Positions 22,592 through 58,391 of a stretch of DNA of 64,000 bases are shown in pieces. Numbering within the stretch: position 1 is the stretch's first letter; every line of letters begins with the position of its first letter. The translations under genes and the position numbers were made by a program. The stretch is from positions 1-64,000 of IMG/VR virus record IMGVR_UViG_3300043424_000625; one strand, written 5' to 3'. The stretch comes from an uncultured virus (IMG/VR IMGVR_UViG_3300043424_000625). Its lineage: Duplodnaviria > Heunggongvirae > Uroviricota > Caudoviricetes. The notes beneath the pieces are model-generated. The model was not told where the DNA came from, did no database searches, and saw only the letters and a program-made list of their open reading frames with translations.

Positions 22592-23686
22592 ATGGCTGTA
22601 GTCGACCATCATGACGACCTCGGAGAGCTGTTTCGCACGACTGGACCCAAGAGCGGCGTCGAGTTCCTCAAGACGGCATCCTGGAAGGAGCGTGACGATC
22701 TGTATGACCGTGACTTCGCGCTCATCATCATGGACAGCCAAGGCAAGGAGCATCGCAAGTTTGCGTGCCATGACGCGGGCAACACCTTTCTCTCGCAGTG
22801 GTACTTGCTCAACGCAGAGCACGGCCTGCCCAGCGGGGCGGTCAAGGTGGCCGCGGCCAATCTTCTCGATGCGGCCGACGCACTCGGACTCGCCTCTCAC
22901 CCGGCACTGACCATCCTTGCCAATGAGGGAGACGATCTTCCCGGGGACGGACGCCGCGTACTGATCAAGGCGGCGTCTGCCGCTACGCAGTACGCGAAAA
23001 CCGCCTCATACGAGCCGTCGCAGATCATGCGTCCTCTTGGAAAGGGCATGTCTGTGCCGCTGGGTAGGCATGAGAAGACTGCGTCTGCCTTTGATGCGAT
23101 CTCGGCCCTCGTTGAGGCATGGGATGACCTCGATCCGTACGATCGGCACGAGGCCGCAGTCGACATTGTGAAGGTCGCAAGCGACATCGGTGCGCAGATC
23201 CCGGATCACATCTTCCGTTACAGCGGGACCACACTCAACCCGCGCTTTGAGAAGGTTGCTTCTCGTCGCGCAGAGTACACAGCCAACCCCGCGTACCAGG
23301 AAGACTACCTTCGACTGGCCAAGATGGCGGCGGCGCTCGATCCAGACGATGTCGTCGAGGCGCTCTTCCTGATGGACGAGCGTGCTGGACTCCTAAATCG
23401 TTATGGCCAGAACATCCCTGACCCCGTACTCACAGTTTTTGGCACGGAAAAGCAGGCTGAGTATTCCTGGGTTCACGGAGGCGACTACGTCACGGCTTCC
23501 ATGCTGATGCGATATGCCGGTAGCACCGCCGCACACACTGCGCTGCAAGATGTTTTTGAGGAGGACGTAGTGTCGCGGTTCAAGAGCGATCCGATTGGCA
23601 CATTCAAGAAGATGCCGCTAGAGCAGCAGATCCTCCTGTCCCGTATGGCCTCGCAGTCCAGAGATACAAACAATGGTGGGTACTGA
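22592..23686 (+). CDS. KxAS-motif protein, probable internal head/scaffold-type protein
   Basis: AGGAG RBS; six KxAS motifs (KTAS x3, KVAS x2, KAAS); upstream of portal. Confidence 0.6.
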   Translation: MAVVDHHDDLGELFRTTGPKSGVEFLKTASWKERDDLYDRDFALIIMDSQGKEHRKFACHDAGNTFLSQWYLLNAEHGLPSGAVKVAAANLLDAADALGLASHPALTILANEGDDLPGDGRRVLIKAASAATQYAKTASYEPSQIMRPLGKGMSVPLGRHEKTASAFDAISALVEAWDDLDPYDRHEAAVDIVKVASDIGAQIPDHIFRYSGTTLNPRFEKVASRRAEYTANPAYQEDYLRLAKMAAALDPDDVVEALFLMDERAGLLNRYGQNIPDPVLTVFGTEKQAEYSWVHGGDYVTASMLMRYAGSTAAHTALQDVFEEDVVSRFKSDPIGTFKKMPLEQQILLSRMASQSRDTNNGGY

Positions 23687-24461
23687 TATCCAGGTATTCA
23701 AGGACGAGAAGAGTCATCCTCTCTCCTTGCTTCGTGGCTACCTTTCTCTCTTCGGCCCAAGAGCGTTGGAGTGGGAACCTTTTGTCGTTAAAAGGTCTGT
23801 TGAGGATCGCCTGAAACTCAACATCCCCCGTGTCGTGCTCATGAAGCTACTGGCGGCCATTTCGGTTGCCAACCACGACATGTTTTGGAAGAGCTGGGAA
23901 ACGTTCCACACAGTCTCTCAGGCCCTTGTGGGTAAGATCCCATCTGTTTCACATATTGATAACCAGTCAGTCTCTGACCTTATGTTGGCCGTAGATGCGG
24001 CTAACAGAATCCGATTGGACTTAGGGACCCTCGGAGACATTCCATTATTTGCGGAGGAGGTCCGGCGGTATATGGCCGCGCAGCTCCATGAGTCGGGAAT
24101 CTGGTACGTACCGGAGCCACTGGAGTTTTTAAATCCTCTGATCTCGAAGACCACACAGGTCTGCGGAGAGTGCGGAAATGAAGAGGAGCCAAAAGAGGAT
24201 GGCCTCTGTAGCTACTGCACAGACCGATACAACACGGACAGTCTATTGAAGATGGAGCCAGACGAGGGGCTTCGAAAGAAGTTTAATGGGTCTAAGGTAA
24301 AGATTGTCACTAAGCTTCCAACTGCGGGCGTGCAGAGGACCCTGGTCGCTCTTCTAAGTAAAAAGAACCCGACCCTTCTAGAAACTGCTGATGATATATG
24401 CGCGGTAAAACTATATGAGGCCGTCGATGCCCTCTTCCGCTACACTGCCGAGCTGAGGTGA
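23673..24461 (+). CDS. Hypothetical protein with zinc-ribbon (CGEC...CSYC)
   Basis: 262-aa ORF coupled in the operon. Confidence 0.6.
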   Translation: MVGTDIQVFKDEKSHPLSLLRGYLSLFGPRALEWEPFVVKRSVEDRLKLNIPRVVLMKLLAAISVANHDMFWKSWETFHTVSQALVGKIPSVSHIDNQSVSDLMLAVDAANRIRLDLGTLGDIPLFAEEVRRYMAAQLHESGIWYVPEPLEFLNPLISKTTQVCGECGNEEEPKEDGLCSYCTDRYNTDSLLKMEPDEGLRKKFNGSKVKIVTKLPTAGVQRTLVALLSKKNPTLLETADDICAVKLYEAVDALFRYTAELR

Positions 24462-24464
24462 ACT

Positions 24465-25487
24465 ATGAATAAAAGCGTTCTTTACTCGTTCTCACTTGAG
24501 TTGCAAAAACAAGCTGGGATTTCTTCGGCTACCCCCTCTGCGCCAGAGGCACAGGAGCCAAAGAAAAAAAATATCATACAAAGAAACTTCACGGGTCCGG
24601 GCGTGGTTCTCCCCGCAATCGGAGGTTTGGTAGCTGGTGCGGCCCTACTTCGTAATCCTAGCGGGGCCGGTAAGCTCTTTACGGCAGCTAAGGAAGTAGC
24701 GACTAAGCCCGTTCAAAGTATTAAGCGCGGGCTGTCAAGCGGAGCCAGCTTCGCAGGAAATAATGCCGACGAGTTTACTCAGGGGGCTGCTAGGTCTAAA
24801 CGCGTGGAGCTTATGAATGAGGCCTTTGAAAACGCGCTTGATGGCACTGCAACACAGTTTGACGCGTTATCAGATACGGCTGGAGCAGCCCGCAAGGGAG
24901 GATGGGCAAGCGCAGGCGAAAGGTCCTCTGGTGGGCTGACTGGATTTTTTAACAAAGATCCGAAGTTTAACGCTAGCGACAACTTAAGATCTAAAATTAC
25001 AAGCATCATGGATCGCCAGCGCGCGGGAGAAATGATTCCAGAGGAAGAGTTGCTTGACGCGTATCGGCAGATCGGCCAAGAAGCTGGCGCACAGAACGTA
25101 AAATTACGCGGGGGCATCTCCACGTATATGCCAGGCGAGCGGGCGATTGAGGTCGGCCAGGTGGGAGTCACTGGTGTCGCCAACGCGCTCCCCTCCACCG
25201 ACGATGAGGGCAATGAGCGTGGTGTTGCGGAGAGGCTCGCTCGTGGCCTAACTGCTGCGGGTATCACCGCTGGAACGGCTCATCTATTTACCGGTAGAAA
25301 CTTAGGATTAGGTAAATCTAACTTGATCACAGGCGGAAAGAGGTCTTTCCTAAGCCAGAAACTGATCGTTCCGTCAGCGGTAGGGATGGCAGCAGTTCCA
25401 TTTGAAGGACTGGCTTCTGACGTTACAGGATCTGCTGGCTCTGTCTTAGACAGAGCATTCGGTCAGGGAAAGGATGAGCAGTCATGA
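24465..25487 (+). CDS. Leader-KxA protein with Gly/Ala-rich hydrophobic segments (candidate virion cargo)
   Basis: N-terminal FSLELQKQAG; segments VVLPAIGGLVAGAALL and GLTAAGITAGTA; visibly more AT-rich than the portal gene. Confidence 0.6.
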   Translation: MNKSVLYSFSLELQKQAGISSATPSAPEAQEPKKKNIIQRNFTGPGVVLPAIGGLVAGAALLRNPSGAGKLFTAAKEVATKPVQSIKRGLSSGASFAGNNADEFTQGAARSKRVELMNEAFENALDGTATQFDALSDTAGAARKGGWASAGERSSGGLTGFFNKDPKFNASDNLRSKITSIMDRQRAGEMIPEEELLDAYRQIGQEAGAQNVKLRGGISTYMPGERAIEVGQVGVTGVANALPSTDDEGNERGVAERLARGLTAAGITAGTAHLFTGRNLGLGKSNLITGGKRSFLSQKLIVPSAVGMAAVPFEGLASDVTGSAGSVLDRAFGQGKDEQS

Positions 25488-27520
25488 ACGTCATTACCAG
25501 CGAAGTAAACCGTTTTAATCCGAGGCCAGTCACCACTGAGGGTGGCCGAGGATTCGGCATTCGCTATCCGTCGCCGTTCTTTGACATCTCTCAGCAGTTC
25601 CTTCCATCTAATCAGCACGAACTACACAAGTGGTGCCGGTATTACTTCTTGACAAATCCGGTGATCAACGCCGCGTGCTCCAAAATGGCAGAGTACCCGG
25701 TCACCCCTCTTATTTTTGAGACAGACGACCCGGAGGTGATGAAGCTTTATAAGAAGGTAGAGGATCACCTCAAGCTGCGCTCATTTCAGGTCGAGGTCGG
25801 GCTCGACTACTTCGTATACGGAAACGCCTTTGTCTCGGTGTTCCTGCCGTTCGAGAAGTACCTCATCTGTGCTTCCTGCGGCGCACGCTACCGTGCCAAG
25901 ACCAACAGATTCCGCTACAAGTGGCGTGACTCTCGTTTCTACCTTCACAAGTGCGACTGTGGCCACGAGGGCTACGCGAAGCAGCACGATGTCTACGTTC
26001 GGAGCTTCCGCCAGATTCGCCTGGTTCGGTGGAATCCAGAGAACATCGACATCAAGCACAACGAGATTACTGGAAAGACCAAGTACTACTTCCGCCTACC
26101 CAAGAGCGTGATCAACGACATCAAACTTGGAGACTGCGACGAGATTGAGTCGCTTCCCCTCGAGTTCCTTGAAGCCGCCCGCGCGAACAAGTCACTCCTC
26201 TTTTCGGAGGACAACCTCTACCATCTGAAGCGACCGACGATCGCCCAGAAGGATCAAGGCTGGGGCACGCCCCTGATCTTCCCGCTTCTGAAGGATGCGT
26301 TCTACCTCCAGGTCATGAAGAAGGCCAACGAGGCAATCCTCATGGAGAACATCGTTCCCATGCGGATGATCTTCCCGGGCCAGAACACTGGAGGCAACGA
26401 GGGGCCCTACGGGGCCTACAACCTGACGAACTGGAAACGTCGGGTAGATGAAGAAATCAACATGTGGAAGCGGGATCACAACTACATCCCGGTCCTTCCT
26501 GTCAACATCGGATTCCAGCAGATCGGTGGACAAGGTCGCGCCCTGTTGATGTACCAAGAGATGCGTCTTCTGGCTGAGCAGATGCTTGCTGGCGCCGGCA
26601 TTCCTGTGGAGTTCATCTTCGGAGGACTCCAGTGGTCTGGATCGAGTACCTCGCTCCGGGCACTGGAAAACATGTTCCTGGGGTACAACAAGCAGCGCCA
26701 CGAGCTGATCAACGTCTTCATCATGGGTAAGATTGCCTCCTTCATGGAGTGGCCCAAGGTCTCGTCGAGATTCGACAAGTTCCGTATGGCTGATGACTTG
26801 CAAAGAAGCATGTTCTACCTCCAACTCAACCAGGCTCAGAAGATCAGCGATCATCGCCTCATGGAAGAACTTGGGGAGGATTTCGATCTCGAGTCGGAGC
26901 GCATGCGCGAAGAGATCAAGAAGCAGCTTCAGTCCAATCGCCGCATGCAGGTCGCTTCGGCAGATATTCAGGGAGAAGCCCAGCTTCGGACCTCACGCTA
27001 CCAAGCCAAGGCGCAGGCCCTGACCATGCGCGCACAGGGCCAGGTACAAATGGAGATGCAGCAGGCAGCGCAGCAGGCTGCCGCACAGCAGCAAGCGCAG
27101 GGCGCAATGCCGCAAGACCCGGCCGCTCAGCAGGGACCCGCTGGAGATCAGGCTCAGCAAACTCCTGGGCTTCCAGAAGGAGCTACCGCCTACGATGAGA
27201 ATGCGGCCACTCCGAATCAGGATGGAATGCCCGCCGCTATGGCGTCTGCCCAGTCACCAATCCAGCCTGGGTCAGGGGGTGTGGACCTGCGGTACATCGC
27301 GCAGCGCGCAGCATCGTTCTTACGCATGCTAAAAAAAGAACAGGGCGAAGAAGCCATGTATCAAGCTCTTCAGCAAATGCAGATGGAGAATCCTCCGTTG
27401 TATCAGCTGGTTATCCAACTAATGAATGACCGCGGCTCGCAGATCGATCCTCTCAACGCGCAGCAAAATCCGGCACCTAACGGAACGCCACAGGCTGACC
27501 CAGGAAGAGCAATCGGCTGA
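25484..27520 (+). CDS. Portal protein with zinc-ribbon insertion and Gln-rich C-terminus
   Basis: YF.TNPVINAAC.KMAEYP, DYFVYGNAF, LYHLK...WG.PLI, AGIPVEFIFGG portal pattern. Confidence 0.75.
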   Translation: MNVITSEVNRFNPRPVTTEGGRGFGIRYPSPFFDISQQFLPSNQHELHKWCRYYFLTNPVINAACSKMAEYPVTPLIFETDDPEVMKLYKKVEDHLKLRSFQVEVGLDYFVYGNAFVSVFLPFEKYLICASCGARYRAKTNRFRYKWRDSRFYLHKCDCGHEGYAKQHDVYVRSFRQIRLVRWNPENIDIKHNEITGKTKYYFRLPKSVINDIKLGDCDEIESLPLEFLEAARANKSLLFSEDNLYHLKRPTIAQKDQGWGTPLIFPLLKDAFYLQVMKKANEAILMENIVPMRMIFPGQNTGGNEGPYGAYNLTNWKRRVDEEINMWKRDHNYIPVLPVNIGFQQIGGQGRALLMYQEMRLLAEQMLAGAGIPVEFIFGGLQWSGSSTSLRALENMFLGYNKQRHELINVFIMGKIASFMEWPKVSSRFDKFRMADDLQRSMFYLQLNQAQKISDHRLMEELGEDFDLESERMREEIKKQLQSNRRMQVASADIQGEAQLRTSRYQAKAQALTMRAQGQVQMEMQQAAQQAAAQQQAQGAMPQDPAAQQGPAGDQAQQTPGLPEGATAYDENAATPNQDGMPAAMASAQSPIQPGSGGVDLRYIAQRAASFLRMLKKEQGEEAMYQALQQMQMENPPLYQLVIQLMNDRGSQIDPLNAQQNPAPNGTPQADPGRAIG

Positions 27521-27522
27521 CC

Positions 27523-27777
27523 TCAGCGAGTGAGATCGGCCGGTCTCTTCCTGGGCTGGTCGATCTGGATACCACTGTATAGACCGTCAAGAATTTCTCG
27601 CGCGTTGTCCACGAAGCACTTTTCGTGGAACATCGCCTCGCTTCCGAAGGTTGAGAAGGTTTCGTCCTCAATGTCCCACTTGCGGGGACGACGTACAACA
27701 CGATGCCGCGCCAGGCTGACCATGCGGTCATCTGTCGTGGCAGTCGCGTCGCACCAGTCGCATCGAAACGGAATCAT
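27523..27777 (-). CDS. Small hypothetical protein (CxxC...HxxC)
   Basis: 84-aa ORF convergent with portal, coupled to the upstream ORF. Confidence 0.5.
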   Translation of the reverse strand: MIPFRCDWCDATATTDDRMVSLARHRVVRRPRKWDIEDETFSTFGSEAMFHEKCFVDNAREILDGLYSGIQIDQPRKRPADLTR

Positions 27778-28094
27778 CTCTTCACCGGCGCGAGGAAGCT
27801 AGAGTAATCTCCACAGTCGGCACAGTGGCCCGACGTCCAGAACGGTTCTGCTGGGTATACTCGAACGCAGGCAGAACAGAGCCAGACTCTTGGCCCAATC
27901 GCGGGGCATCCGCCACACTCCAGAAGTCCACACTTCTCTTCGATGAGGGGGCAGTAGACCTGAATGGTGTCTTCCTCCTCGGTCTTAAAAAGAAGGTCGC
28001 TTCTGTGTGGACGCGAGGGCATGCCCCCGATCTCGGCGTTGAGCCGAGATCGGAGGCGCCCCGCGGTCTTACTTGTCACCAATCTCAGAGGCAA
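27774..28094 (-). CDS. Small Cys-rich hypothetical protein (start uncertain)
   Basis: Eight Cys including CGGC, CSAC, CADC. Confidence 0.5.
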   Translation of the reverse strand: MPLRLVTSKTAGRLRSRLNAEIGGMPSRPHRSDLLFKTEEEDTIQVYCPLIEEKCGLLECGGCPAIGPRVWLCSACVRVYPAEPFWTSGHCADCGDYSSFLAPVKR

Positions 28095-28158
28095 TCACCT
28101 GCCCCGCCGTCTTCAAAGCCGCCGCGATTGCGGCGGCAACAAACAGTATTGAAAGCAT
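28069..28158 (-). CDS. 29-aa hydrophobic micro-protein; not in the ORF track
   Basis: GGAG RBS, TAATG coupling; MLSILFVAAAIAAALKTAGQVIASEIGDK*. Confidence 0.45.
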   Translation of the reverse strand: MLSILFVAAAIAAALKTAGQVIASEIGDK

Positions 28159-28232
28159 TACCAGTCTCCGAACTCGTCCGTTTTCTTCCAGGGGTTGGCC
28201 TTCCCTTCCTCAGTATCGTCGGGCTCGCTCAT
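28158..28232 (-). CDS. 24-aa acidic micro-protein; not in the ORF track
   Basis: AAGGAG RBS; MSEPDDTEEGKANPWKKTDEFGDW*. Confidence 0.45.
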   Translation of the reverse strand: MSEPDDTEEGKANPWKKTDEFGDW

Positions 28233-28242
28233 CTACTCTCCT

Positions 28243-28272
28243 TTGCCGGGGCTATACTCCGGCTGTTATACT
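28243..28272 (+). promoter_or_regulatory. Sigma70-like promoter upstream of the RNAP gene
   Basis: TTGCCG-N18-TATACT with extended -10 TG (28264-65); GGAG RBS and ATG 28299 follow. Confidence 0.5.
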
Positions 28273-28278
28273 TATGAC
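28271..28278 (-). promoter_or_regulatory. Conserved octamer GTCATAAG, copy 2
   Basis: About 39 nt upstream of ATG 28232 on - strand. Confidence 0.6.
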
Positions 28279-28298
28279 CTGCACTGGAGATATTTTTA

Positions 28299-31200
28299 AT
28301 GTCCAATCTGAACCCGACCGAAAGCTACAATCTTCTGGTTCAGAAGACAAAAGAGGCGATTTCTTCTCACTTTCCTATCGAGGGAAGTAAGCATCGTCTC
28401 GAGCTGGTAAAGCTGGAAGTTGAGGATGACGACGCGACCGGGTCGGCCCAATTCAATCCCAGCAACTACAACAGTCAGCTCGAAGCCAAGATGAACGATC
28501 AGACCTGGGGCCCAGAGCTTGTCGGAAACTTTCGTCTGATTGATAAGGCAACTGGGAAGGTGCTGGATCAGAGATCTCGTACGCTCGCAAAGATTCCTAA
28601 AATCACCACGCGCTACAGCTACATCGTCGGAGGGAACGAGATGCAGCTGGACAGCGTGTTCCGGCTCAATCCCGGCGCGTACCACGCGGAAGCGCAGAAC
28701 GGTGATCTGCTCGCAAAATGGAACGTCGCCGCAGGCAGCAAGGTTGGTTCCTTCGATCTTTACATTGAACGTAAAGATCCTAAGAAGCTCGGCTTGATCA
28801 CGATGACGATCAAGAGCAGCGCGACATCGTCGGTGGAGGTGCCGATCTACCCAATCCTGGTAGCGATGGGCGTTAGCGACGGGCAGATGAAGAGCGCGCT
28901 CGGGGAAAAGATTTTTGCCGTCAACGAGGCCAAGGGTAGCTCGAAGGCGTTGCTTTCCTTCCACAAGGCGGTTGAGGGTCGGCGCGCGGGACCGGACTAC
29001 AAGCCTCCGGAAGTGTCAGCTGCGGCAGCCTATGTAAAGGAGACATTTGAGTCTGCTGAGGTCAGCCCACAGACAATGAAGTCTGCCTTCGGCAAGGAGT
29101 TCTCGTCGATCACGGGCGAAGCCCTGCTACTTTCGGCAAAGAAACTGGTGGACATCAGCCGCGGAGATGTTCCCGAGGATGACCGTCAGTCTCTCACAAA
29201 CAAAAGACTTTTTGGGGCAGAGGACTTCGTCTATGAAGAACTGACAAAGGGCAAGACGATCTATGCGCTCACGCGCAAGATCCGTAACAATGTCGATCGC
29301 AAGGATAGAATCCAGGACATTATTCCCGCATCTGTGTCTGGGTATGGCGCCGCGATCATTAAACCCTTTAAAGCCGGTCAGCTTCCAACGCAGACAAATC
29401 CTCTCCAGTTCCTTTCCAATCATACGCGCACAACCATCTTGGGCGCAGAGTTTGGAGGCATCAAGGGAGACAACGTCAACCTGATGCAGGATAAGCTGAT
29501 CAATCCCAGCCATCTCGGGATGCTTGACCCACTTCAGACCCCGGAAAGTTCGCACACTGGAATCATCCTCCACGTTCCGCTGGGTGCTCAGAAATTTGGG
29601 CACGACCTGATGGCGCAGGTCGTAAATGTCCGCACTGGAAAGATTGAACGAAAGAGTGCCGCCGATCTGGAGCGGGCGGTTGTCGCGTATCCTGACCAGG
29701 CCAAGGTCGAGAAGAAGCCAGATGGAACGGCTAAGGTCACGCCACTCTCTGAGTTTGTCGTTGTATATGACAAGGACAGGAACACAACGAAGCGGGCATG
29801 GAAGGATGTTGACTACATCCTTCCATCCGCAAAGCTCCTCTTCGCAGCCAGTGCAAACCTGATTCCGTTTGTACAAAACGACAATGGCAACCGCGCCATG
29901 ATGGCCGCTAAGCACCAAGAGCAGGCTGTTGGCTTGAGAAACCGTGAGGCCCCGCTGGTCCAGACACAGGCATCTGCGGGATCAACGTACGAGGACATTG
30001 TTGGAGCCACCGCAGCCGTCCTGTCTGATGCGGATGGTAATGTCACTGAGGTTAAAAAAGACCGTATTATTGTTTTGGGTACAGACGGTAAGAAGTACAC
30101 CCACGCCATCTACAACAACTTCCCGCTCAATGGCGCGAAGCACATGCTTCACTCCGATCCGGTGGTTGCTGTGGGCGATAAAGTTCGCCAAGGCCAGCTT
30201 CTCGCCGACTCAAACTTTACGAAGCAGGGAAAGCTGTCTCTCGGAACAAACCTGCGAGTCGCATACATTCCGTATCGTGGGTACAACTTCGAGGACGGCA
30301 TTGTCATCTCGGAGTCCGCCGCCGAGAAGCTTGTGTCGAGCCATCTTCACGTTGCTGAAGCGGAGATGCACCCGAACATCGTCGTCAACAAGAAACTCTG
30401 GCGCCAGTATGCTGGACCCGTAAAGGCGACGCCTGAGATTCTTCAGAAGCTCGATGACAATGGACTTATCCAGGTCGGCCAGAAGGTCGAGCCTGGGGAT
30501 GTTTTGATTGCAAAACTTCAGAAGATGGCAATATCCAAAGACACGGAGGACATCCGTCGTCGCTTGAAGGGCGCGATTCAGGACTACTCCGACGCGTCTG
30601 TGAAGTGGGATCACGAGTACAATGGGACAGTTGCGCGGGTGGTCAACAACGGTCGGCGGATCATGGTCTACATCCGTACTGAACAGACAATGGAGGTCGG
30701 AGACAAGCTCTCCGGCCGTCATGGAAACAAAGGGATCGTGACCAAGATCCTGCCCGACGACCAGATGCCGAAAGATAAGGACGGCAACCACGTCCAGGTC
30801 TTGTTGTCTCCCGCAGGCATTCCCTCGCGTATGAATCCTGGACAGGTTCTCGAGAGCGTGGCGGGTAAGGTGGCCCTAAAGACGGGTAAGCCCTTCGTCG
30901 TCAACAACTTTGATGCCTCTACAGACTACTCTGCGATGGTCAAGGACTTGATGCAGAAACACAGTGTCTCGGATACGGAGGAGCTATTCGATCCTGAGAC
31001 GGGCGAGAACCTCGGAAACGTTCTCGTAGGCAACCAGTACATCTTGAAGCTGGATCACCAGGCGGAGAAAAAGATCTCGGCCCGTGCCGGTGGTTTCGGC
31101 TACGCGTACAAGACCACGGGAGAGGCGTCACAGGGTTCGGGCATTGGAGAGGGAGGCCAGAGAATCGGAGGCCTCGATTCGTACACCCTCCTTGCCTATG

Positions 31201-34649: not shown

Positions 34650-34650
34650 G

Positions 34651-34680
34651 GTCACCATGGACAAGATCGCCGCCTACCAA
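34651..34680 (+). repeat. 30-bp leader repeat, copy 1 (second copy 39524-39553)
   Basis: GTCACCATGGACAAGATCGCCGC(C/T)TACCAA, 29/30 identical. Confidence 0.9.
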
Positions 34681-45503: not shown

Positions 45504-45525
45504 CTAAGCGTTCCTTGCAGTAGAG

Positions 45526-46197: not shown

Positions 46198-46215
46198 TCC
46201 CACTCCAGGTTTCTG

Positions 46216-47334: not shown

Positions 47335-47876
47335 CAGTTCGAGTTCCTACAGAAGCGTACGCTGCCTATGCGCGCGGAGAGCTGAGTCATTCGGAACTTC
47401 TGGGACTGGAGAAGATGGCGTCTGACATGAGCAAGACCGCCCTCAATATTAGTCCACAGTCTCTGGCCAGTCTTGGCGGGCTACTTGTAGCAGCTCCGAC
47501 GCTCTCGTACGCTGGTGCTCAGATACCGGAAGCTTTACAGAGTGCGGAATCTGCACTAATGTTTAACCGAGACCTACGCAGGGTTGTCGCAGTTAATCCG
47601 CAGCTGGGATCGCCTGAGGATCCGAATCTCCGCATGGCGTTTAAGACTCTGAGAAGTGTTAACCCAGAATATTCTAAAGATCCGCTTATTGCCGGTACGA
47701 TTCTAGATATGGTTATGACAAACCGTATGGATCCAGACGACCCGACAAGCCCGCCGCGGTTCGACCCTGCTCTTCTTCAGAGCATCCAATCGAGAGGAAA
47801 TCCCGCTGTCGATGCCGCAAGACAGGCCGGCGCCAAGAGCACTGCCATGCCACTCTCTGCAATGCTCGCCCCGTAA
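47331..47876 (+). CDS. Leader-KxA protein (181 aa)
   Basis: LEKMASDMSKTA followed by hydrophobic LASLGGLLVAAP. Confidence 0.6.
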   Translation: MTVRVPTEAYAAYARGELSHSELLGLEKMASDMSKTALNISPQSLASLGGLLVAAPTLSYAGAQIPEALQSAESALMFNRDLRRVVAVNPQLGSPEDPNLRMAFKTLRSVNPEYSKDPLIAGTILDMVMTNRMDPDDPTSPPRFDPALLQSIQSRGNPAVDAARQAGAKSTAMPLSAMLAP

Positions 47877-49771: not shown

Positions 49772-49781
49772 CGAGGATCCC

Positions 49782-50762
49782 GTGTCTCTACTCGCAGAAC
49801 TACAAACCCGGGGCATCACGGCAGAAGATCTCGAAAAAGCAGCTTCTGTTCGCCTTTTTGAGAAAGCCGCCGCCGCCGAGGGTGTAAACCTCGATGATCT
49901 GAGCGAAACACAGGTCACATCTCTATTCAACCAGTTCGTTTCCCGTTCCGCCCCGTCCACCAAAGAGGCATCTGCCATGAACAACGAAGTTATCGACCTC
50001 TTCGAAAAGACCGCTTCTGCCGAAGGCATCGATCTAGACGACATGAGTGATGCAGAGCTGGCTCAGCTCTTCAATCACTACGTCGAGAATGTTCTCCCGG
50101 AACAGCTTGCAGAGGCTGAGGGTCAGGACAAGGAGGCCATGGTCCAGGATGCACACGAGAAGCTCGCTGAAGCAGAGATTCTTGGTCGTCACATGGCTCG
50201 TGCATATGCCGATGAGATCCAGAAGATCGCAGAAAAGCCTCCTATGGGCCTCGGCAAGAAGATCGGTCTCGGCTTAGGCGCCACCGGCTTGACGGCCGCG
50301 GGCGTCTACGGCGGCAAGAAGCTGTACGATCGCCGCAAGGCGCGCAAAGCTGCTATGCAGGCTGATGCTGAGGAAACATCCTCTGAAGCTGAGAAGCAGT
50401 CGTCTGCACTAAACCTTGCGGCACTGGTCAAGATCGCGAGTGTCTACGGCTTTGACGTCGGCATGAAGGTTGCCGAAGAGGCATCCGCCGCAGCCGATGC
50501 GGCGGATGCAGTGGCGGATGCCGCCAAGGCTGCCCCCTCGTCGATGGGCCTCGGCAAGAAGATCGGTCTCGGCTTAGGCGCCACCGGCTTGACGGCTGCG
50601 GGCGTCTACGGCGGCAAGAAGCTGTACGATCGCCGCAAGGCTCGTTTGCAGGCCATGCAGGCGCCTGCGGAAGAGGCTCCTTCTGAGGCTGAGAAGCAGT
50701 CGTCGGCGTTTGTCGACGCCCGCGCAGTCCAGCTTCTCCGCATGGCCGGCTACAACATCTGA
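49782..50762 (+). CDS. KxA-rich scaffold-like protein carrying a duplicated cationic Gly-rich peptide
   Basis: Two LFEK.A.AEG..LDD.S..E...LFN repeats; MGLGKKIGLGLGATGLTAAGVYGGKKLYDRRKAR twice. Confidence 0.7.
   Translation: MSLLAELQTRGITAEDLEKAASVRLFEKAAAAEGVNLDDLSETQVTSLFNQFVSRSAPSTKEASAMNNEVIDLFEKTASAEGIDLDDMSDAELAQLFNHYVENVLPEQLAEAEGQDKEAMVQDAHEKLAEAEILGRHMARAYADEIQKIAEKPPMGLGKKIGLGLGATGLTAAGVYGGKKLYDRRKARKAAMQADAEETSSEAEKQSSALNLAALVKIASVYGFDVGMKVAEEASAAADAADAVADAAKAAPSSMGLGKKIGLGLGATGLTAAGVYGGKKLYDRRKARLQAMQAPAEEAPSEAEKQSSAFVDARAVQLLRMAGYNI
50244..50641 (+). repeat. 98-bp direct repeat, copies 300 bp apart (50244-50341 and 50544-50641)
   Basis: One mismatch (50297 C vs 50597 T); degenerate similarity continues about 60 bp further. 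Confidence 0.95.
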
Positions 50763-50768
50763 GTGATC

Positions 50769-50812
50769 AGCATGGCGCCGTTCTTCGACACATTCTAGGA
50801 CGGCGCCATGCT
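50769..50812 (+). promoter_or_regulatory. Hairpin occluding the RBS and start codon of the 50808 gene
   Basis: 13-bp perfect inverted repeat AGCATGGCGCCGT/ACGGCGCCATGCT, extendable by 3 pairs (one G-U) over AGGA. Confidence 0.55.
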
Positions 50813-51095
50813 TAACTCTTTAGTTGTTCGGCACATGTTTGCAGAACTGACCAAGATAGCGGCGAACAGAATCACTGACGGACTCCGCACCCCCGGAAAT
50901 TCTAATAGAATCTTGCCAAATGGGCCCCCGAATCCCAAACCGGCCTCCGGTAAAAACTTCGGCAAATTTCAACTCGCCGGACCGGGTAAGCCGACGATGA
51001 CCGGCACTGGTAGAACAGCTACCAACCTCGCATCCAATACTCCTGTCGGCACAACCGGCTTCACTTCTCTCCCGACTCCAACTTCCTCCGAGTAG
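50808..51095 (+). CDS. Leader-KxA protein with Pro/Gly/Thr-rich disordered body (95 aa)
   Basis: N-terminal MFAELTKIAA. Confidence 0.55.
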   Translation: MLNSLVVRHMFAELTKIAANRITDGLRTPGNSNRILPNGPPNPKPASGKNFGKFQLAGPGKPTMTGTGRTATNLASNTPVGTTGFTSLPTPTSSE

Positions 51096-51104
51096 AGGTT
51101 CCTC

Positions 51105-52343
51105 ATGAGCAACTACAGAAGCATGATTGACCAAGCCCTAGAAGCTGCTCGTGCGCGTTCCCACACGGCGATTGAAGCCGAGAAGACTGCATCCCGCCCC
51201 GGCTCCTCCTTGGTCAAGGAGGCACAGGAGGTCGCAAGTGCGCTCGAGTTCGTTTCTCTGAGTGCAACGGGTGGAAACCGGGCAGACGGATTTCGTCAGG
51301 AAATGATTAGGGACTTCTACAAGAGCGCCATGGCAAGTCCCGCACAGGGCGCCACCTCTACCAGCGGAGTCCAAGGCGTAGCGCCGACAGAAGGGAAGAC
51401 TCGGATTGCACCGAAGGGCCTGGTCACGGGTAATAGCCCTGTCAGCGGCTCCGTGACGGCAAACACTCGTGACGGCGAGAAGCCGCTACGGGAATCGTTT
51501 AAGCAAGCGGGTGGCCAGTCTCTCTACGACATCCTGATGAACAATAAGACCGCTGGTGTTGGCGGCCCTGCGGAATCCGACGCGGAAACCCTGTCCGGAG
51601 TTACGTCCGCTAACGAAAACTCAACCTACCGGGCTACTTTGCATTCAAACGAAGGGCCTGTCCTTGCAAACAAGCGTAACTTGAAGAAGTCTACGAGAGC
51701 TCGGCTTGCAGAGGCGTTCGCACATGTGGGAGATACCCTCGGCGATGCGAGCGCAGCGCAGATCTTCCCTCTCGCGGCTCGGATGGGGCACCTGAAAGAT
51801 GCGGCAGCTAGAGTGAAGAAGAGGATGACTCCGGACAACATAAATCGGCTGCCAGCGGACAAGAGAGAGAAAATTGTAGATTGGCTCATGAGCAGCCCCG
51901 ATAGTGGTAGACTGGCCTTCGACGAGGCAATGGATGAGATAGCTAAAAATGATCCCGACCTGTTCGCCCAAATGGAGGGGTTTCCTGCTGAGATACCTCC
52001 TCATCCATCGGAAAGGTACATTCCAGGCAGGGTTGGCAGGCCTGGATGGCCGGAGGTGCCAGCAGCTGCTGTGGATATGAGCTCTGCGCCGGCGTCGGTG
52101 CCAGCAGCTGCTGTGGATATGAGCTCTGCGCCGGTGGAGGCTGCGGAAACACTCGGGCGATCAATGGACGCTGCTCCGAACCAGGGAATGGGGAGATTCC
52201 TTACCCGCAGAAACCTTGGGCTGGCCGCAGGCGCCGCCGGGCTCGCTACAGCGGCGGGAGTGGGAGCCCACCTCTATAGAAAGCGTTCGGCGGCAGATCG
52301 TCTTAGGCAGATGCAGGCAGAGGGCGTCCAGGGAGGAGAGTAG
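51105..52343 (+). CDS. KxA-rich protein with C-terminal Gly/Ala hydrophobic helix
   Basis: EKTAS, VKEA, YKSA, FKQAG, NKTAG; ends LGLAAGAAGLATAAGVGAHLYRKR. Confidence 0.65.
   Translation: MSNYRSMIDQALEAARARSHTAIEAEKTASRPGSSLVKEAQEVASALEFVSLSATGGNRADGFRQEMIRDFYKSAMASPAQGATSTSGVQGVAPTEGKTRIAPKGLVTGNSPVSGSVTANTRDGEKPLRESFKQAGGQSLYDILMNNKTAGVGGPAESDAETLSGVTSANENSTYRATLHSNEGPVLANKRNLKKSTRARLAEAFAHVGDTLGDASAAQIFPLAARMGHLKDAAARVKKRMTPDNINRLPADKREKIVDWLMSSPDSGRLAFDEAMDEIAKNDPDLFAQMEGFPAEIPPHPSERYIPGRVGRPGWPEVPAAAVDMSSAPASVPAAAVDMSSAPVEAAETLGRSMDAAPNQGMGRFLTRRNLGLAAGAAGLATAAGVGAHLYRKRSAADRLRQMQAEGVQGGE
52055..52134 (+). repeat. Tandem duplication, 42-bp period (VPAAAVDMSSAP x2)
   Basis: 38 identical bp at 52055-52092 and 52097-52134. 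Confidence 0.95.
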
Positions 52344-52383
52344 TGTGTCGCCTCACAGCAGGCCTTCTCGGAGATAGCGTAAG

Positions 52384-52980
52384 ATGAGCCCGTCTCGTAA
52401 AAAACATGCCGCCGCCCCAGTCTTCTACGAGGATAAGGATCGCCTTTATCACGATATCGGAGATGGCGTTCTTTTCTCGATGGGAAAGGGCGATCGTGCT
52501 GACGCCTACAAAGCGCAAGTTGAAGGTGAGCACGGGTTTGTAGGGTCGACTGCACCATCTTCTCCGGAAGGCCACTACGGACTTCGCGCGGGTAAGGCGC
52601 TGTCGAGAACGCTGGACTCTCTAAATCCAGGAAGAGCGCGGTACAGGTCTCTTAAAGACTTAATCTTTAGGCGCCCTGACCCTAACTATCGTCTCGGATC
52701 TGAAGTGCTACCTATTCAGGCAGAGAACGTGAGCGATGAAATGAACAGGACTACACACTCTCTAAACAAGTCAGCATCTCTCGCGGAGTACTCAGTTCTG
52801 TTCGATCACATCGACTCCGGAGATTTAGGCTCCCATGTGAAACAAGCTCTAATTGGCGTTTGCGAAGCGATTACTTCTCCGCTACAATCTCCCCACGCGA
52901 AGGTTGCATCTTCGCCAATGCAGATGACAGAATCCCAGGCGAGGCAGGCTCGACTGGACCAACTACTCAGAAAGTTTTAA
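52384..52980 (+). CDS. KxAS-motif hypothetical protein (198 aa)
   Basis: KHAA, KSAS, KQAL, KVAS. Confidence 0.55.
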   Translation: MSPSRKKHAAAPVFYEDKDRLYHDIGDGVLFSMGKGDRADAYKAQVEGEHGFVGSTAPSSPEGHYGLRAGKALSRTLDSLNPGRARYRSLKDLIFRRPDPNYRLGSEVLPIQAENVSDEMNRTTHSLNKSASLAEYSVLFDHIDSGDLGSHVKQALIGVCEAITSPLQSPHAKVASSPMQMTESQARQARLDQLLRKF

Positions 52981-52994
52981 CCGCGAGGACTGCA

Positions 52995-53360
52995 ATGCTC
53001 AAGATCGGACATGCAGAACTGGCTGTAGTCTCCGCAAAAGGTGCTGCTGCCATTCGCTCGCTGACCGAAAAGGTCGCGAGCCTGGAGCAGGAGAACATCC
53101 AGCTCCGCACAAAGCTTGCTTCTATTGCACGCGACTCTCAGGTTGCTGAGCTCGCGCGTGAGATGGAAGACAAGGGCCTCAACGCCCACATGACGTTCGA
53201 TGAGAAGATTGCGCATCTCCGGGGTCATGCGCAGCTTGAGAACGTCAGGGAGGCTGTGAAGATGGCGAGCGCGGGCAATGTTCGCATCGCTGATCTATCG
53301 GACCGTCCTGGCAGGTCGGCTCTTGACCCCCTCACTTCCTTCTGCCTCACTGGCGAGTAA
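52995..53360 (+). CDS. Small coiled-coil scaffold-like protein with KxAS motifs
   Basis: GAGG RBS before ATG 52995; EKVAS, TKLAS, VKMAS; two genes upstream of the capsid gene. Confidence 0.6.
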   Translation: MLKIGHAELAVVSAKGAAAIRSLTEKVASLEQENIQLRTKLASIARDSQVAELAREMEDKGLNAHMTFDEKIAHLRGHAQLENVREAVKMASAGNVRIADLSDRPGRSALDPLTSFCLTGE

Positions 53361-53372
53361 TAGGAGCCAACC

Positions 53373-53963: not shown

Positions 53964-53991
53964 TCGACCCAACGTCCCGTAGGAGAACACC

Positions 53992-55122
53992 ATGGACTAC
54001 TCCGCAGATATGGTGAACTCGGGCTTCATTGAGCGCCTCGAGACCGAGGGTCCAACGAAGACCGCAGCCGCCTCTCTCAACTACATCAAGGACCGCCTCC
54101 GCGAGTCCAGCTTCGCCGACATGATCGTTCCGAACGAGCGTGTTGTGCGTGGCGACCTTCAGCGTTCCACCGAGCATGACACGCTCGTGAAGATCGTGGA
54201 CATTGAGCCGGGCTCCCGGGCGATGGCCGTGAACTTCCGCGGTCAGCCGACGGCTGAGTACGTGAATGGCAAGCGGTACGCCATCTCCTTCTTCACCATC
54301 TCGTCCCTCAAGTTCGAGATCGTTGAGCAGGAGCTGATGGCCTACGAGATGCCCATCACGCGCATCATCGAGGAGAACAGCCTCAAGGACATGGTCGAGG
54401 TGAAGGATCGCGAGTTCCTGAACCACGTCGAGTCCTGCGTCAACGCCATGCAGGCCGAGGGCAACTCTGGCTCTGCTGCCTTCTCTGTCGCCGGTGGCCA
54501 GCTCACCGTCTCGAAGATCAAGGGCGTTCTCGCGACCCAGTCGGGCGGCTCGGCCACGGACTTCGACGTGTACGCGATTCAGCGCGCTGACATCGTGAAC
54601 ATCAAGAAGCTCCTGAAGCGCCAGATCGTCGTCGGCAGTGAGACCATCCGCGCTGGCCGCCTGCGGCCCGCTCTGATGCTCATGACCGAGAGCGATGCGG
54701 ACGATTTCGACCAGTGGACCCACGAGGACTACGGCGATCGTCTCCAGAGCGAGACGGCGCTCGATGGCTACACCTACAACAAGGTGTTGGGCCTTCGGAT
54801 CATCCGGACCATCAAGAACGACATCCTCCGCGAGGGGAACGTCTACGTCTTCACGGCCCCGGAGTTCTTCGGCCGGAACTACACGCTGAACGACGTGAAG
54901 TTCTACATCGACAAGGTCGCGAACCGCATCTTCTGGCAGGCCTGGATGGACGTCGGCATGGGCTTTGGCAACATCGCCGCCGTCGTCAAGCTCGAGCTCT
55001 ACCCGGGCGATGCGACAGACGCCAGCGCCACGTCGGTCATCCCTGTTGAGGAGAGCGCCATCGGCGCGCTCAACAACAAGGTCGCTGAGGGCCTGACCTT
55101 CCCGAACATCAACGTCTTCTGA
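53992..55122 (+). CDS. Major capsid protein
   Basis: Very strong codon bias, AGGAG RBS, followed by a terminator; 376 aa between scaffold and neck genes; IKDRLRE.SF...I, D.EP.S.A, K...E..D..F patterns; KTAA at residues 23-26. Confidence 0.8.
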   Translation: MDYSADMVNSGFIERLETEGPTKTAAASLNYIKDRLRESSFADMIVPNERVVRGDLQRSTEHDTLVKIVDIEPGSRAMAVNFRGQPTAEYVNGKRYAISFFTISSLKFEIVEQELMAYEMPITRIIEENSLKDMVEVKDREFLNHVESCVNAMQAEGNSGSAAFSVAGGQLTVSKIKGVLATQSGGSATDFDVYAIQRADIVNIKKLLKRQIVVGSETIRAGRLRPALMLMTESDADDFDQWTHEDYGDRLQSETALDGYTYNKVLGLRIIRTIKNDILREGNVYVFTAPEFFGRNYTLNDVKFYIDKVANRIFWQAWMDVGMGFGNIAAVVKLELYPGDATDASATSVIPVEESAIGALNNKVAEGLTFPNINVF

Positions 55123-55125
55123 CGT

Positions 55126-55180
55126 TGAGACCGGGGACGGTCTCATTGGCCCCGGTCCGCCTGTCGGGCCGGGGCTTTTT
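55126..55180 (+). terminator. Tandem hairpins and Rho-independent terminator after the capsid gene
   Basis: TGAGACCG-GGGA-CGGTCTCA, then GCCCCGGTCCG-loop-CGGGCCGGGGC-TTTTT. Confidence 0.85.
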
Positions 55181-55196
55181 ACTTAGAGGACAACAC

Positions 55197-56233: not shown

Positions 56234-56733
56234 TGTCCTTTGAGAGCACTACAGTCATTCCCTCGGCGAGCAAGAGGATGAACGAGGTCGTGGCGATGAT
56301 TCGCCTCTACCTGCGCGACTTCCCCGAACTCAATCGTCTGATCTCTGGCGAGGAGACCAGCGATCGCATGATCGCGTGGGCAGTTGTGGACGCCATCGAC
56401 GACTACAACTCGACTCCACCGTTCATTGGGAATGTAGGGCTCAAGAACTTCCCCTCCCTCAGCATGCTGAGGGAGGCGGCAGTCATTCGCATTCTGGAAT
56501 CAGTCGGACTCCTTCAGCTGCGGAACCAGATGAACTACTCGGACGGAGGAATCTCCGTCTCGGTGTCTGACAAGTCTCAGTTCTTGATGGGCTGGATTCA
56601 GATGCTCCGCAATTCCTACGAACAAAAGAAGATGCGGGTGAAGTCTTCGCTGAACGTAGAGTACGCCTTCGAAGGCGGTGGTGTAGAGTCTGAGTACTTC
56701 GTCATCAATGGCGTCTACTTCTCGAACTTCTGA
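56233..56733 (+). CDS. Probable head-tail adaptor (neck) protein
   Basis: Position after capsid; helical, IRLYLRD...A.DDYN..PP...YSDGGISVS. Confidence 0.55.
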   Translation: MSFESTTVIPSASKRMNEVVAMIRLYLRDFPELNRLISGEETSDRMIAWAVVDAIDDYNSTPPFIGNVGLKNFPSLSMLREAAVIRILESVGLLQLRNQMNYSDGGISVSVSDKSQFLMGWIQMLRNSYEQKKMRVKSSLNVEYAFEGGGVESEYFVINGVYFSNF

Positions 56734-57220
56734 GGCTTCCGTGGAAGATCTATTTACCAATCCCCATTCGGATATTCCGGACGCTCTGTGGAAGTCGGCA
56801 TCTCCTATGGAGCGCCAGCTTGCTGCTGTCGAGTACTGGGCAGAGCTTCGTGGTGCTGAGAAGACGGCCAGCGCGCGCCGTCTCCATAAATTGAAGGACT
56901 TCATCAGAGACAACCGTACGATTACCGGAGCTGCTGCGTTGCTGACGGGCGTGCCTGCTGGAGTCCTCACCTACAAGGGGACTGCTCCCAACGAGTCTGG
57001 ACTGACAAAACGAGAGCGTAAGAACTTGGTTACAGAGGCACAGTACAACCAGGCGGACAGTGTGGGAGATATTACGCCAGAATATAAGAAAAAGTTTCTG
57101 GAAATCAACCGGAAGATCGCAGAGCTTGAGAAGGAGAACCCGAAAGCATTTGCGGCCCTCTTTGGAACTGGTGTCGGGCTGGGGACTGCGGGCCTCATGC
57201 GATCCTCCTTGAGGAGCTAA
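56708..57220 (+). CDS. Leader-KxAS protein with two Gly-rich hydrophobic segments
   Basis: WKSAS..EKTAS; ITGAAALLTGVPAGVL and FAALFGTGVGLGTAGLM. Confidence 0.6.
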   Translation: MASTSRTSEASVEDLFTNPHSDIPDALWKSASPMERQLAAVEYWAELRGAEKTASARRLHKLKDFIRDNRTITGAAALLTGVPAGVLTYKGTAPNESGLTKRERKNLVTEAQYNQADSVGDITPEYKKKFLEINRKIAELEKENPKAFAALFGTGVGLGTAGLMRSSLRS

Positions 57221-57222
57221 AC

Positions 57223-58101
57223 GTGCTGCTGCTCCGTAACGAACGCGTTGTTTCTTTCTCCATAAATTACAATGACGTGTTCTGGGAGATCGAGCCGACC
57301 ACTGAGGACGTACAGCAGTACGAGTTTTATGTGGAACGCTCTGAGGCGGAGGCAGGTCCGTGGGACACGATTGCCGGCCCACTGATCGATCAGTATATGA
57401 TCCGAGACAACGCGGTTCATGCAATCACCACAAACGCGCGCACTCTTTTTTATCGGGTCCGGTGTCGACACGTTCCTACAGATCGTGTCGTCTACTCGGC
57501 GACATTTGACCGGGAAGGAAGCCCAAACATTCTAGCGACGGAGATGATCCGACTGGAGCGGGTGCTCTTTGAAGAGTTCGTGGGGGTTCGCTGCTGGCTC
57601 TTTCCCAGACGATCGTTTGGCCAACGGTGCCCAAACTGCTATGATTCCGTACTCGGAAAGACGGTAGATACTCGCTGCCCCACTTGTTGGGGCACTGGCT
57701 TTAGCGGGGGATACCACTACCCAACAGCCTTCTGGGCTCAGATTGATCCCGTTCCGGAGGCGGAGCAGGTATCAAGCGAGGATCACCGTAGAGTGCAGAT
57801 GGCGCAGCTTCGATGCGGACCAAGTCCGGCAATCAAGCCGTTAGATCTGGTTATAGATCATCAGAATAGACGATTTCGGGTGGTGGAGTCGGGAGGCACC
57901 TCCATGTCCGGGGTTCGTGTTCGAGCAGAGGTTAAGATGGTCCTTATCCAGAAAGGCTCTATTGAGGACAAGATTCCTTTAAAAGTGGACACATCGACGG
58001 TAGTATTATCTCCAAGACGTAATTTTCAAAATGCCCAGTCCCAGGAAGCATCCAAAGCCTCTGAGTTCGACGCATTCTCTCTGTATGGAGTACGATCATG
58101 A
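57223..58101 (+). CDS. Probable head-closure/neck protein with FN3-like N-terminus and zinc finger
   Basis: FYVERS...GPW.TI; RCPNCYD...CPTCWGTGF.GGY; neck position. Confidence 0.5.
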   Translation: MLLLRNERVVSFSINYNDVFWEIEPTTEDVQQYEFYVERSEAEAGPWDTIAGPLIDQYMIRDNAVHAITTNARTLFYRVRCRHVPTDRVVYSATFDREGSPNILATEMIRLERVLFEEFVGVRCWLFPRRSFGQRCPNCYDSVLGKTVDTRCPTCWGTGFSGGYHYPTAFWAQIDPVPEAEQVSSEDHRRVQMAQLRCGPSPAIKPLDLVIDHQNRRFRVVESGGTSMSGVRVRAEVKMVLIQKGSIEDKIPLKVDTSTVVLSPRRNFQNAQSQEASKASEFDAFSLYGVRS

Positions 58102-58391
58102 GTGACGAGCCAAAGAATAAAAGATCTGCGGATATTGCAGAGATCGTGGCGCTGCCGGCACTGGCGACAGGTGCCGGTACCTTGCTTGGAGGTATTGGAG
58201 GTGGACTACTTGCTCGCGAGGCCCTGCAGACTCCGGGTGTTGTCTCTCGCCTGGCTAGAATGAGTCCCACAAAGAGAGATCGTGTGTTGGCGGCAGTCTC
58301 TGGGCTGCTGGGCAGCGCGGCAGGCACGGCTGCTGGTGTTGGGTCATTCACGCTAGCTAAGCACCTTCAAGACAAATACGAGAATTCCTAG
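58098..58391 (+). CDS. Small glycine-zipper membrane-type protein
   Basis: ATGAGTLLGGIGGGLL and GLLGSAAGTAAGVG. Confidence 0.6.
   Translation: MSDEPKNKRSADIAEIVALPALATGAGTLLGGIGGGLLAREALQTPGVVSRLARMSPTKRDRVLAAVSGLLGSAAGTAAGVGSFTLAKHLQDKYENS

Follow-up and report, generated by a model that had tools for sequence, protein, structure and literature searches.

K-x-A-S, a probable cleavage signal for the prohead protease in the head proteins of an uncultured phage

The head module

We have analyzed the first 64 kb of a 75.6-kb record from an uncultured virus of the class Caudoviricetes (IMG/VR IMGVR_UViG_3300043424_000625), which is estimated to be about 41% complete. This stretch of 64,000 nt is called the window in the following text. 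A plus-strand block from 22.6 to 63 kb forms the head-and-tail module. The subject of this work is a short motif, K-x-A-S, which recurs in many proteins of this module, and its relation to a prohead protease encoded among them. Open reading frames (ORFs) are named by their first coordinate. The protease gene, 47876, sits in the head module with the genes for the large terminase (43243), the portal (25484) and the major capsid protein (53992). The portal shows 31% identity to the annotated portal of Salmonella phage Arash (E 2e-94), and a sheath-related product of 1256 aa is encoded at 59243. There is no PHROG or Pfam family match for 32 of 38 products, and neither a tRNA scan nor an Rfam scan of the whole window gave a match.

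Abundance of the motif

We translated 59 ORFs and counted K-x-A-S in their products. Twelve ORFs contain 38 exact copies: 22592 (6), 34657 (1), 36260 (2), 37961 (5), 46216 (8), 47331 (1), 47876 (3), 49782 (4), 51105 (1), 52384 (2), 52995 (3) and 56708 (2). The original prediction, a reading of the sequence by eye, had put the total at about 35–40, and each of its per-gene numbers agrees with ours. ORF 50808 adds one copy, which gives 13 carriers and 39 copies; these carriers also hold 11 KxAA and 4 KxAG.

The significance of these numbers was assessed with 5000 within-protein shuffles, dropping the doubtful ORF 27825 and using shorter starts for 46216, 52995 and 36260. The 39 copies in the 13 carriers (4,076 aa) compare with 2.24 ± 1.5 in shuffled sequences, and no shuffle reached that number: The enrichment that had been proposed is real. 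The other 45 products (16,792 aa) have only 3 copies, compared with 4.59 in shuffles. They are found in a 2009-aa protein, in the portal (KIAS 416, not conserved in the Arash portal) and in ORF 9727. The terminase, the sheath-related product and the RNA-polymerase beta-like product of 28299 have none, the last with three K.A[AG] matches (the dot stands for any residue). The earlier estimate of about one copy in the RNA polymerase, polymerase, terminase, portal, sheath and 2009-aa proteins combined was therefore slightly low. The doubtful GTG ORF 27825–28277 holds one KVAS.

An unbiased scan of three-letter patterns in eight spacing templates, covering all 59 products, gave K.AS as the top pattern, with 43 occurrences vs 6.84 expected from per-protein composition (Poisson p 1.7e-20). 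The runner-up in the same template has p 3e-5. Twelve permuted or reversed motifs, K.SA, A.KS and SA.K among them, occur 0–4 times each.

Could the excess be an artefact of composition, of internal repeats or of a signal in the DNA? Two modules of 49782 are visibly repeated, as such an origin would suggest. In general, the flanks of different sites are only 6.4% identical, compared with 6.8% for random segments, so the copies do not come from repeat amplification. Every synonymous codon occurs in the motif, two for Lys, four for Ala and six for Ser, roughly at background rates. A degenerate DNA pattern for the motif has 48 matches on the plus strand, 39 of them in frame in carrier genes, and 12 on the minus strand, which is not enriched. 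Selection therefore acts at the protein level. Given also the shuffles and the rarity of permuted motifs, we give this explanation practically no credit.

The motif has a characteristic context. Among the 43 sites, position –2 is often Leu (13) or Phe (5) and position –1 Glu (15), the variable position is Thr or Val, and the residue after Ser is Ala in 13 cases. The fuller motif is hydrophobic-E-K-[T/V/L]-A-S-A. Many copies end a short N-terminal leader, as the original prediction had noted: The Lys lies at residues 15–37 in ten ORFs (22592, 24465, 34657, 36260, 37961, 47331, 47876, 49782, 51105 and 56708) and in the capsid protein, where the Lys of the single KTAA is residue 23 of 53992, the position previously given.

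The protease

The sites in the protease and in the other head proteins were compared with their orthologues in 8 non-redundant related contigs, selected from 16 loci by excluding duplicates and the window's own longer contig. Their proteases are 61–88% identical to that of the window. The protease gene and its sites are as follows:

47876..49771, plus strand: prohead protease precursor, 631 aa, with N-terminal leader 1–39, catalytic domain about 41–292, linker, and C-terminal domain about 398–631
47984..47995, plus strand: KTAS 37–40, putative N-terminal autoprocessing site; kept in 8/8 orthologues, K37 and A39 at least 90% conserved in 70 family members
48752..48763, plus strand: KTAS 293–296, putative site releasing the catalytic domain from the C-terminal part; kept in 7/8 orthologues
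49058..49069, plus strand: KVAS 395–398, third precursor site; K395 at least 90% conserved, K.A[SAG] in 5/8 orthologues and K.AE in the rest
49640..49651, plus strand: KIAD 589–592, about 40 residues before the precursor C-terminus; the family consensus is also K-x-A near there, Asp in the fourth position is atypical

The relationship of this protein to known proteases is seen in its structure. Its sequence profile has no match among PDB chains (best E 0.45), and a Pfam search gave no match. One PHROG, phrog_18299, "head maturation protease", gives a weak match (E 4.7e-5), and 42 of the 62 aligned family members match it as well. An AlphaFold 2 model of residues 1–310, based on this 62-sequence alignment, has a predicted local distance difference test score (pLDDT) of 88.3. 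A VIA-align comparison of the model, which is independent of Foldseek, places T4 gp21 first (5jbl, Z 9.2, rmsd 2.8 Å, 132 residues aligned), followed by the proteases of varicella-zoster virus (VZV; 1vzv, Z 8.7), human cytomegalovirus (8j3s, Z 6.8) and Kaposi's sarcoma-associated herpesvirus (1fl1, Z 6.1); unrelated entries have Z of 5.2 or less. In Foldseek, all of the first 15 matches listed are herpesvirus proteases, the best one from Epstein–Barr virus (E 1.6e-3), and no match passes E 0.001. According to the model, the product of 47876 is a serine protease, of predicted activity, with the fold of T4 gp21 and herpesvirus assemblin. No usable relative of the C-terminal part was found in the ESM Atlas.

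Four residues, H138, S194, D252 and S254, are invariant in 70 sequences, and the catalytic order is His then Ser. H138 and S194 are also present in the homologues from phage G, Mycobacterium phage Cali, Erwinia phage Yoloswag and Arash. His138 and Ser194 are likely catalytic residues, together with an acidic one which is probably Asp252. In T4 the third catalytic residue is Asp, in herpesviruses it is His.

Residues 204–220 (48485–48535) form a Cys-x2-Cys-x10-Cys(-x-His) insert which is conserved in the family; Cys204, Cys207 and Cys218 are also kept in phage G gp19, Cali gp93 and Yoloswag gp142. It resembles a small zinc-binding knuckle. T4 gp21 is not known to have an insert of this type.

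Two of the sites in the precursor coincide with domain boundaries. Site 37 lies in the only stretch of the model with pLDDT below 50 (residues 22–40), and site 293 just after the last strand of the folded domain, in a block with mean pLDDT 52. The idea that motifs fall at domain boundaries thus holds for sites 37 and 293 of the protease, the one protein examined in this respect. The same arrangement is common in the protease family, which comprises 2,527 clusters at 50% identity (E at most 0.001). Of 150 family representatives, 118 contain a K.A[SAG] site in residues 11–60, mostly at 28–33, compared with 7.4 (at most 18) after local shuffling. Behind the domain end, 120 of 143 representatives have a site in the next 70 residues, compared with 27.6 (at most 43) in shuffles. 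In total, 151 family proteins contain 348 KxAS vs 44.6 expected. The N-terminal sites of the 118 representatives show the context described above: Position –2 is L, F, I or M in 110 and position –1 is Glu in 51. Their last residue is S in 45, G in 42 and A in 31. KIAD 589–592 is a possible further C-terminal site; its position is reminiscent of the herpesvirus maturational site.

Sites in other head proteins

The proteins with sites, besides the protease, are listed below. Values after "vs" are numbers of KxAS in shuffles.

46216..47334, plus strand: 372 aa, 8 KxAS plus KVAA and KTAG; 8 vs 0.45, reached in 0/5000
22592..23686, plus strand: 364 aa, 6 KxAS plus KVAA and KMAA; 6 vs 0.15
37961..39463, plus strand: 500 aa, sites 37, 61 and 361, 389, 417, 458, 475 on either side of a 300-residue core; 5 KxAS vs 0.17
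49782..50762, plus strand: 326 aa, directly 3' of the protease gene, sites 19, 28, 61, 76, 217; 4 KxAS vs 0.30, reached in 1/5000
52995..53360, plus strand: 121 aa, two genes 5' of the capsid gene, sites 15, 26, 40, 89; 3 KxAS vs 0.08
53992..55122, plus strand: major capsid protein, 376 aa, KTAA 23–26; putative removal of a leader of about 25 residues
47331..47876, plus strand: 181 aa, KMAS at 28; K.A[SAG] in 3/8 orthologues, K.A[ED] in 5/8
51105..52343, plus strand: 412 aa, KTAS 27, KQAG 133, KTAG 148, KDAA 231
52384..52980, plus strand: 198 aa, KSAS 129 kept in 5/7 and KVAS 173 in 7/7 orthologues
56708..57220, plus strand: 170 aa, KSAS 29 kept in 3/7 and KTAS 52 in 4/7 orthologues (weaker)
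36260..37873, plus strand: 537 aa, KMAS 17, KFAS 183 (numbered from 36260); 2 vs 0.29, reached in 176/5000
34657..35166, plus strand: 169 aa, KRAS 18, KIAA 3; not significant alone (217/5000 shuffles)
50808..51095, plus strand: 95 aa, KIAA 16, KPAS 44; KPAS kept in 0/6 orthologues, doubtful substrate
24465..25487, plus strand: 340 aa, leader ends in L-Q-K-Q-A-G at 15; possible further substrate

Site positions are conserved in orthologues, one of the checks which had been proposed. In 43 K.A[SAG] sites, the K, A and S columns have an average identity of 0.77 among orthologues, compared with 0.59 for the flanks. The second position drifts: KTAS, KNAS, KHAS, KIAS and KVAS are found at one and the same site. 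Ala is only replaced by Ser, Gly or Pro. Lys is the most invariant position, with Arg instead in some orthologues (REAS, RSAA, RGAS). Sites can even be aligned with those of Arash, at 25–27% protein identity.

Several proteins illustrate this. Six orthologues of 22592, the most distant of them 42% identical, all keep K85/A87, K194/A196 and K244/A246; homologues of this protein were sought in cultured phages and none was found. The C-terminal sites of 37961 are kept in 5–6 of 6 orthologues, and sites 19, 28 and 61 of 49782 in 8 of 8. Site 27 of 51105 is also kept in 8 of 8, while its middle residue varies (V, S, A, I or T). In 52995, K26-V-A-S and K89/A91 are invariant in 9 sequences; from its position and size, this product may be described as scaffold-like. 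The site of the capsid protein is kept in 8 of 8 orthologues. This protein has no sequence match among PDB chains (best E 0.29), but it is related to the annotated Arash capsid protein, gp226 (BLASTP E 2e-29, 27% identity), in which KEAG is aligned with KTAA.

The protein with most sites is 46216. Cutting at every one of them predicts 11 pieces of 19–67 residues, and three of the sites have an aligned site in Arash gp220, to which the protein is 25% identical. Its Atlas model has a pLDDT of 0.52, and a search for a usable relative in the ESM Atlas found none (best score 0.77).

These substitutions bear on one alternative, in which the motif would be the place of a covalent modification of Ser or of a cross-link through Lys. 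Both residues are chemically reactive. On the other hand, Ala or Gly readily takes the place of Ser at these sites, which lie in low-confidence, poorly conserved linkers. The interchange of S, A and G excludes a modification directed to Ser and fits a small residue behind a cleaved bond (P1'). We regard modification or cross-linking as extremely improbable.

Distribution in related phages

All 16 closer loci show enrichment in K-x-A. In a wider set of 55 distinct uncultured loci, whose proteases are 34–44% identical, K.A is the most enriched of the 400 possible pairs of this spacing in 43. The top pair in the 12 exceptions includes L.K (six loci) and F.K (one locus), which could correspond to the hydrophobic –2 position of the fuller motif.

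Two cultured phages also have this excess in the head genes next to a homologous protease. The region of Arash has 16 K.AS vs 4.1 expected, with sites in gp220–gp226, and that of phage G 14 vs 3.1. The proteases, Arash gp222 and phage G gp19, are 33% and 30% identical to that of the window. Sites 43, 248 and 274 of gp19 bracket its domain, and in Arash the gene order around the protease is the same. The Arash paper does not mention a cleavage motif (the words "protease" and "cleav" occur 0 times; PMC10585845). The phage G multi-omics paper only names gp19 as head maturation protease, giving neither a cleavage motif nor termini.

Two annotations of more distant members should be noted. In Cali gp93, a homologue of the protease domain is found at the start of a 1286-aa protein annotated as "tape measure", and in Yoloswag gp142, a homologue is annotated as "putative endolysin". 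Both annotations are probably wrong.

Comparison with known proteases

The motif differs from the known cleavage signals of this class of enzymes. The patterns of Glu-type phage codes are not enriched in the head proteins: [LI].E (T4-type) occurs 36 times vs 33.5 expected (z 0.5), [SAG].E (phiKZ-type) 64 vs 75.8 (z –1.7) and A.E (SPN3US-type) 30 vs 36.4 (z –1.2). The defining mark of a Glu-type prohead code is absent. The hydrophobic P3 of the herpesvirus code, (V/L/I)-x-A↓S, is not seen either: [VLI].AS is found 3 times vs 7.7 expected. Among 65 x-A-S occurrences, 39 have Lys two positions before Ala. Within the motif, A-S is invariant.

T4 gp21 is the best fold match, with the same His-then-Ser order, and its gene likewise belongs to a head module, with core and capsid genes as neighbours. 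In T4, core proteins carry many sites, while shell and internal proteins only lose a short leader. Besides the signal, several features set the enzyme described here apart from gp21: It has no sequence-level match to any solved chain, its precursor has 631 aa, 340 of them in a C-terminal extension, and it contains the conserved Cys-x2-Cys-x10-Cys insert.

The phiKZ and SPN3US proteases, gp175 and gp245, cut at S/A/G-x-E and at A-X-E with Ser at P1', respectively. As we propose for the present phage, many head proteins are processed there at a single short motif of the P3-x-P1 type, in which P1' is preferably Ser, N-terminal propeptides have extra motif copies, and the enzyme cleaves itself (PMC10052503). 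The difference is that here P1 would be Ala, not Glu, and P3 would be Lys. The resemblance to herpesvirus assemblin (pUL26) extends from the fold to the proposed bond, Ala-Ser or Ala-Thr, and to a site immediately after the protease domain, where this domain would be set free from a longer precursor (PMC4498786). In contrast to assemblin, P3 is occupied by Lys and not by a hydrophobic residue, and the third catalytic residue would be acidic, of the phage type, not the His of herpesviruses.

A probable cleavage signal

The system would work like the maturation programmes of T4, phiKZ and SPN3US, and its enzyme belongs to their fold class. From the enrichment, the conservation of the sites and the nature of the enzyme, we think it most likely that the phage's own prohead protease, ORF 47876, recognizes K-x-A-[S>A>G] and cuts there. 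This was in essence the original prediction, which stands as regards enrichment, site conservation and a protease of the gp21/assemblin fold; cleavage itself is what we infer from them. The prediction had also considered that this was not a described system. A search of the full-text literature, which did not cover the 2020 structure work on phage G, found no phage cleavage rule of the K-x-A type, only Glu-type rules.

We propose that the 631-aa protease precursor would enter the prohead together with the core proteins and would free its own catalytic domain by cuts at 37, 293 and 395. It would trim leaders of 15–40 residues off some ten head proteins besides the capsid protein, and reduce 46216, 22592, 49782, 52995 and the two ends of 37961 to short peptides. 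Shredding of these multi-site proteins would clear the prohead interior for DNA. The original prediction favoured a large set of packaged, probably ejected proteins. The densest carriers, 46216, 22592 and 52995, look more like an expendable scaffold or core, shredded to peptides of 10–60 residues, than like cargo; ejected cargo is possible for proteins which only have a leader site.

The scissile bond is probably Ala↓Ser, with Lys at P3, Ala at P1 and a small residue at P1'. This bond is favoured because the Ala position only accepts Ser, Gly or Pro in orthologues, because the next residue is small (S, A or G), and because the measured sites of fold relatives read P3-x-P1. SPN3US gp245 recognizes A-X-E and prefers Ser at P1' (PMC10052503), and pseudorabies assemblin cuts at YLQA-T and VQA-S (PMC4498786). 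These sites and the I/LxE of T4 gp21 (PMC12991175) agree with the earlier statement that known phage codes end in Glu, while assemblin cuts after Ala.

The same protease might cut after Lys (K↓x-A-S), in the manner of trypsin or of HK97, whose capsid protein is cut after Lys. Lys is in fact the most invariant position, and its occasional replacement by Arg is what a basic S1 pocket would allow. But this would place the invariant Ala at P2' and the small residue at P3', unlike the P3-x-P1 sites of SPN3US and of pseudorabies assemblin, which cuts after Ala (PMC10052503 and PMC4498786), and the narrow tolerance at the Ala position is what a small S1 pocket would produce. We consider a cut after Lys unlikely.

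Even less probable, in our opinion, is that the motif is not cut at all and only serves for binding or targeting into the prohead, for example by docking to the protease, the scaffold or the capsid interior. All carriers are head-module proteins, which fits this idea, and so does the mass spectrometry of Arash virions discussed below. However, a single copy would be enough for targeting, while some proteins contain up to 10 copies, spaced by 19–60 residues, and the sites precisely bracket the catalytic domain over 150 family members. Copy number and bracketing fit the processed substrates of T4 and SPN3US better than a docking motif.

Several observations weigh against cleavage at K-x-A-S as proposed here. 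Some sites are poorly kept: 50808 site 44, 52384 site 7 and 53373 site 61. In some orthologues, Glu or Asp is found in the fourth position (47331 site 28, 47876 site 395 and 51105 site 133). As to the third catalytic residue, D252 is replaced by Glu in Cali, Yoloswag and phage G, where D202 is not conserved and D81 is. The head regions of Cali and Yoloswag, which have distant proteases of the same family, show no K-x-A excess. No clean candidate was found for an enzyme residue separating these two phages from K-x-A users, since phage G sides with the non-users at many columns. Finally, removal of leaders is not visible in the Arash virion data, which only report coverage: 100% for the putative substrates gp221, gp223 and gp224, 95.77% for gp220 and 86.64% for the capsid protein (PMC10585845, Table 2).

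Because there is no excess in Cali and Yoloswag, the K-x-A rule belongs to a sub-clade of the family, and the head regions of these two phages indicate that their own rule is different. As for Arash, precursors may be present in the preparation, since it contained 116 proteins including ribonucleotide reductases (PMC10585845). The coverage figures also look high for the 6–9 unique peptides listed.

Other genes of the head module

Some other features of the module were observed:

28299..34649, plus strand: 2116-aa product with matches to several phage RNA-polymerase beta-subunit PHROGs, spread along the protein
27520..28299: 780-bp stretch from the portal gene to the RNA-polymerase gene, whose sole content is the doubtful GTG ORF 27825–28277, of odd composition
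45526..46692, minus strand: ORF with a helix-turn-helix domain, HTH_17, at residues 170–216 (E 9.7e-6, weaker than the Pfam cut-off)
34657..35166, 39530..40090 and 40099..40650, plus strand: three small paralogues which start with M/V-D-K-[I/L]-A-A-Y-Q and end in Gly/Ala-rich hydrophobic stretches

Mass spectrometry of Arash virions ranks two homologues of the 28299 product, gp206 and gp216, with the most abundant proteins (PMC10585845), which suggests by analogy that 28299 may code for a virion-packaged RNA polymerase. The long form of the HTH_17 ORF runs over the start of head gene 46216. The true start of this ORF is probably an internal Met, so it would be a divergent regulator beside the head operon. 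Uncharged Gly/Ala-rich segments similar to those of the three paralogues are found in 24465, 36260, 47331, 51105, 56708 and 58098, and 49782 has two Lys-flanked ones. Head-interior proteins may use such segments for insertion into membranes or for self-association.

Significance

Proteolytic maturation determines which proteins remain in a phage head, and in what form. Most likely, the protease described here follows a different, herpesvirus-like rule, unlike the phage proteases characterized to date, which cut after Glu. Among phage proteases with the T4 fold, it would represent a second specificity class, resembling the herpesvirus rule. With a code that can be read, a processing map of leaders, shredded core proteins and mature products would be predicted from unannotated ORFs, and head-interior proteins would be recognized from sequence alone in thousands of metagenomic phages.

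We can suggest, as a tentative generalization, that a large and almost wholly uncultured clade of 120–200-kb phages might cut at Ala↓Ser, as assemblin does, from a precursor with a layout similar to pUL26, with Arash and phage G as its cultured footholds. If true, herpesviruses would share with living phages not only a fold, but also the Ala-Ser rule and the design of the precursor. The proposed cleavage signal itself can be tested in these two phages.

A different protease rule also bears on which defences can detect these phages. According to a recent preprint, bacterial enzymes of the cyclic oligonucleotide-based antiphage signaling system (CBASS) sense T4 gp21 through a loop bearing LxE (PMC12991175). 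If the generalization is true, the phages of this clade would be invisible to host sensors tuned to Glu-type sites, such as this CBASS loop cut by T4 gp21.

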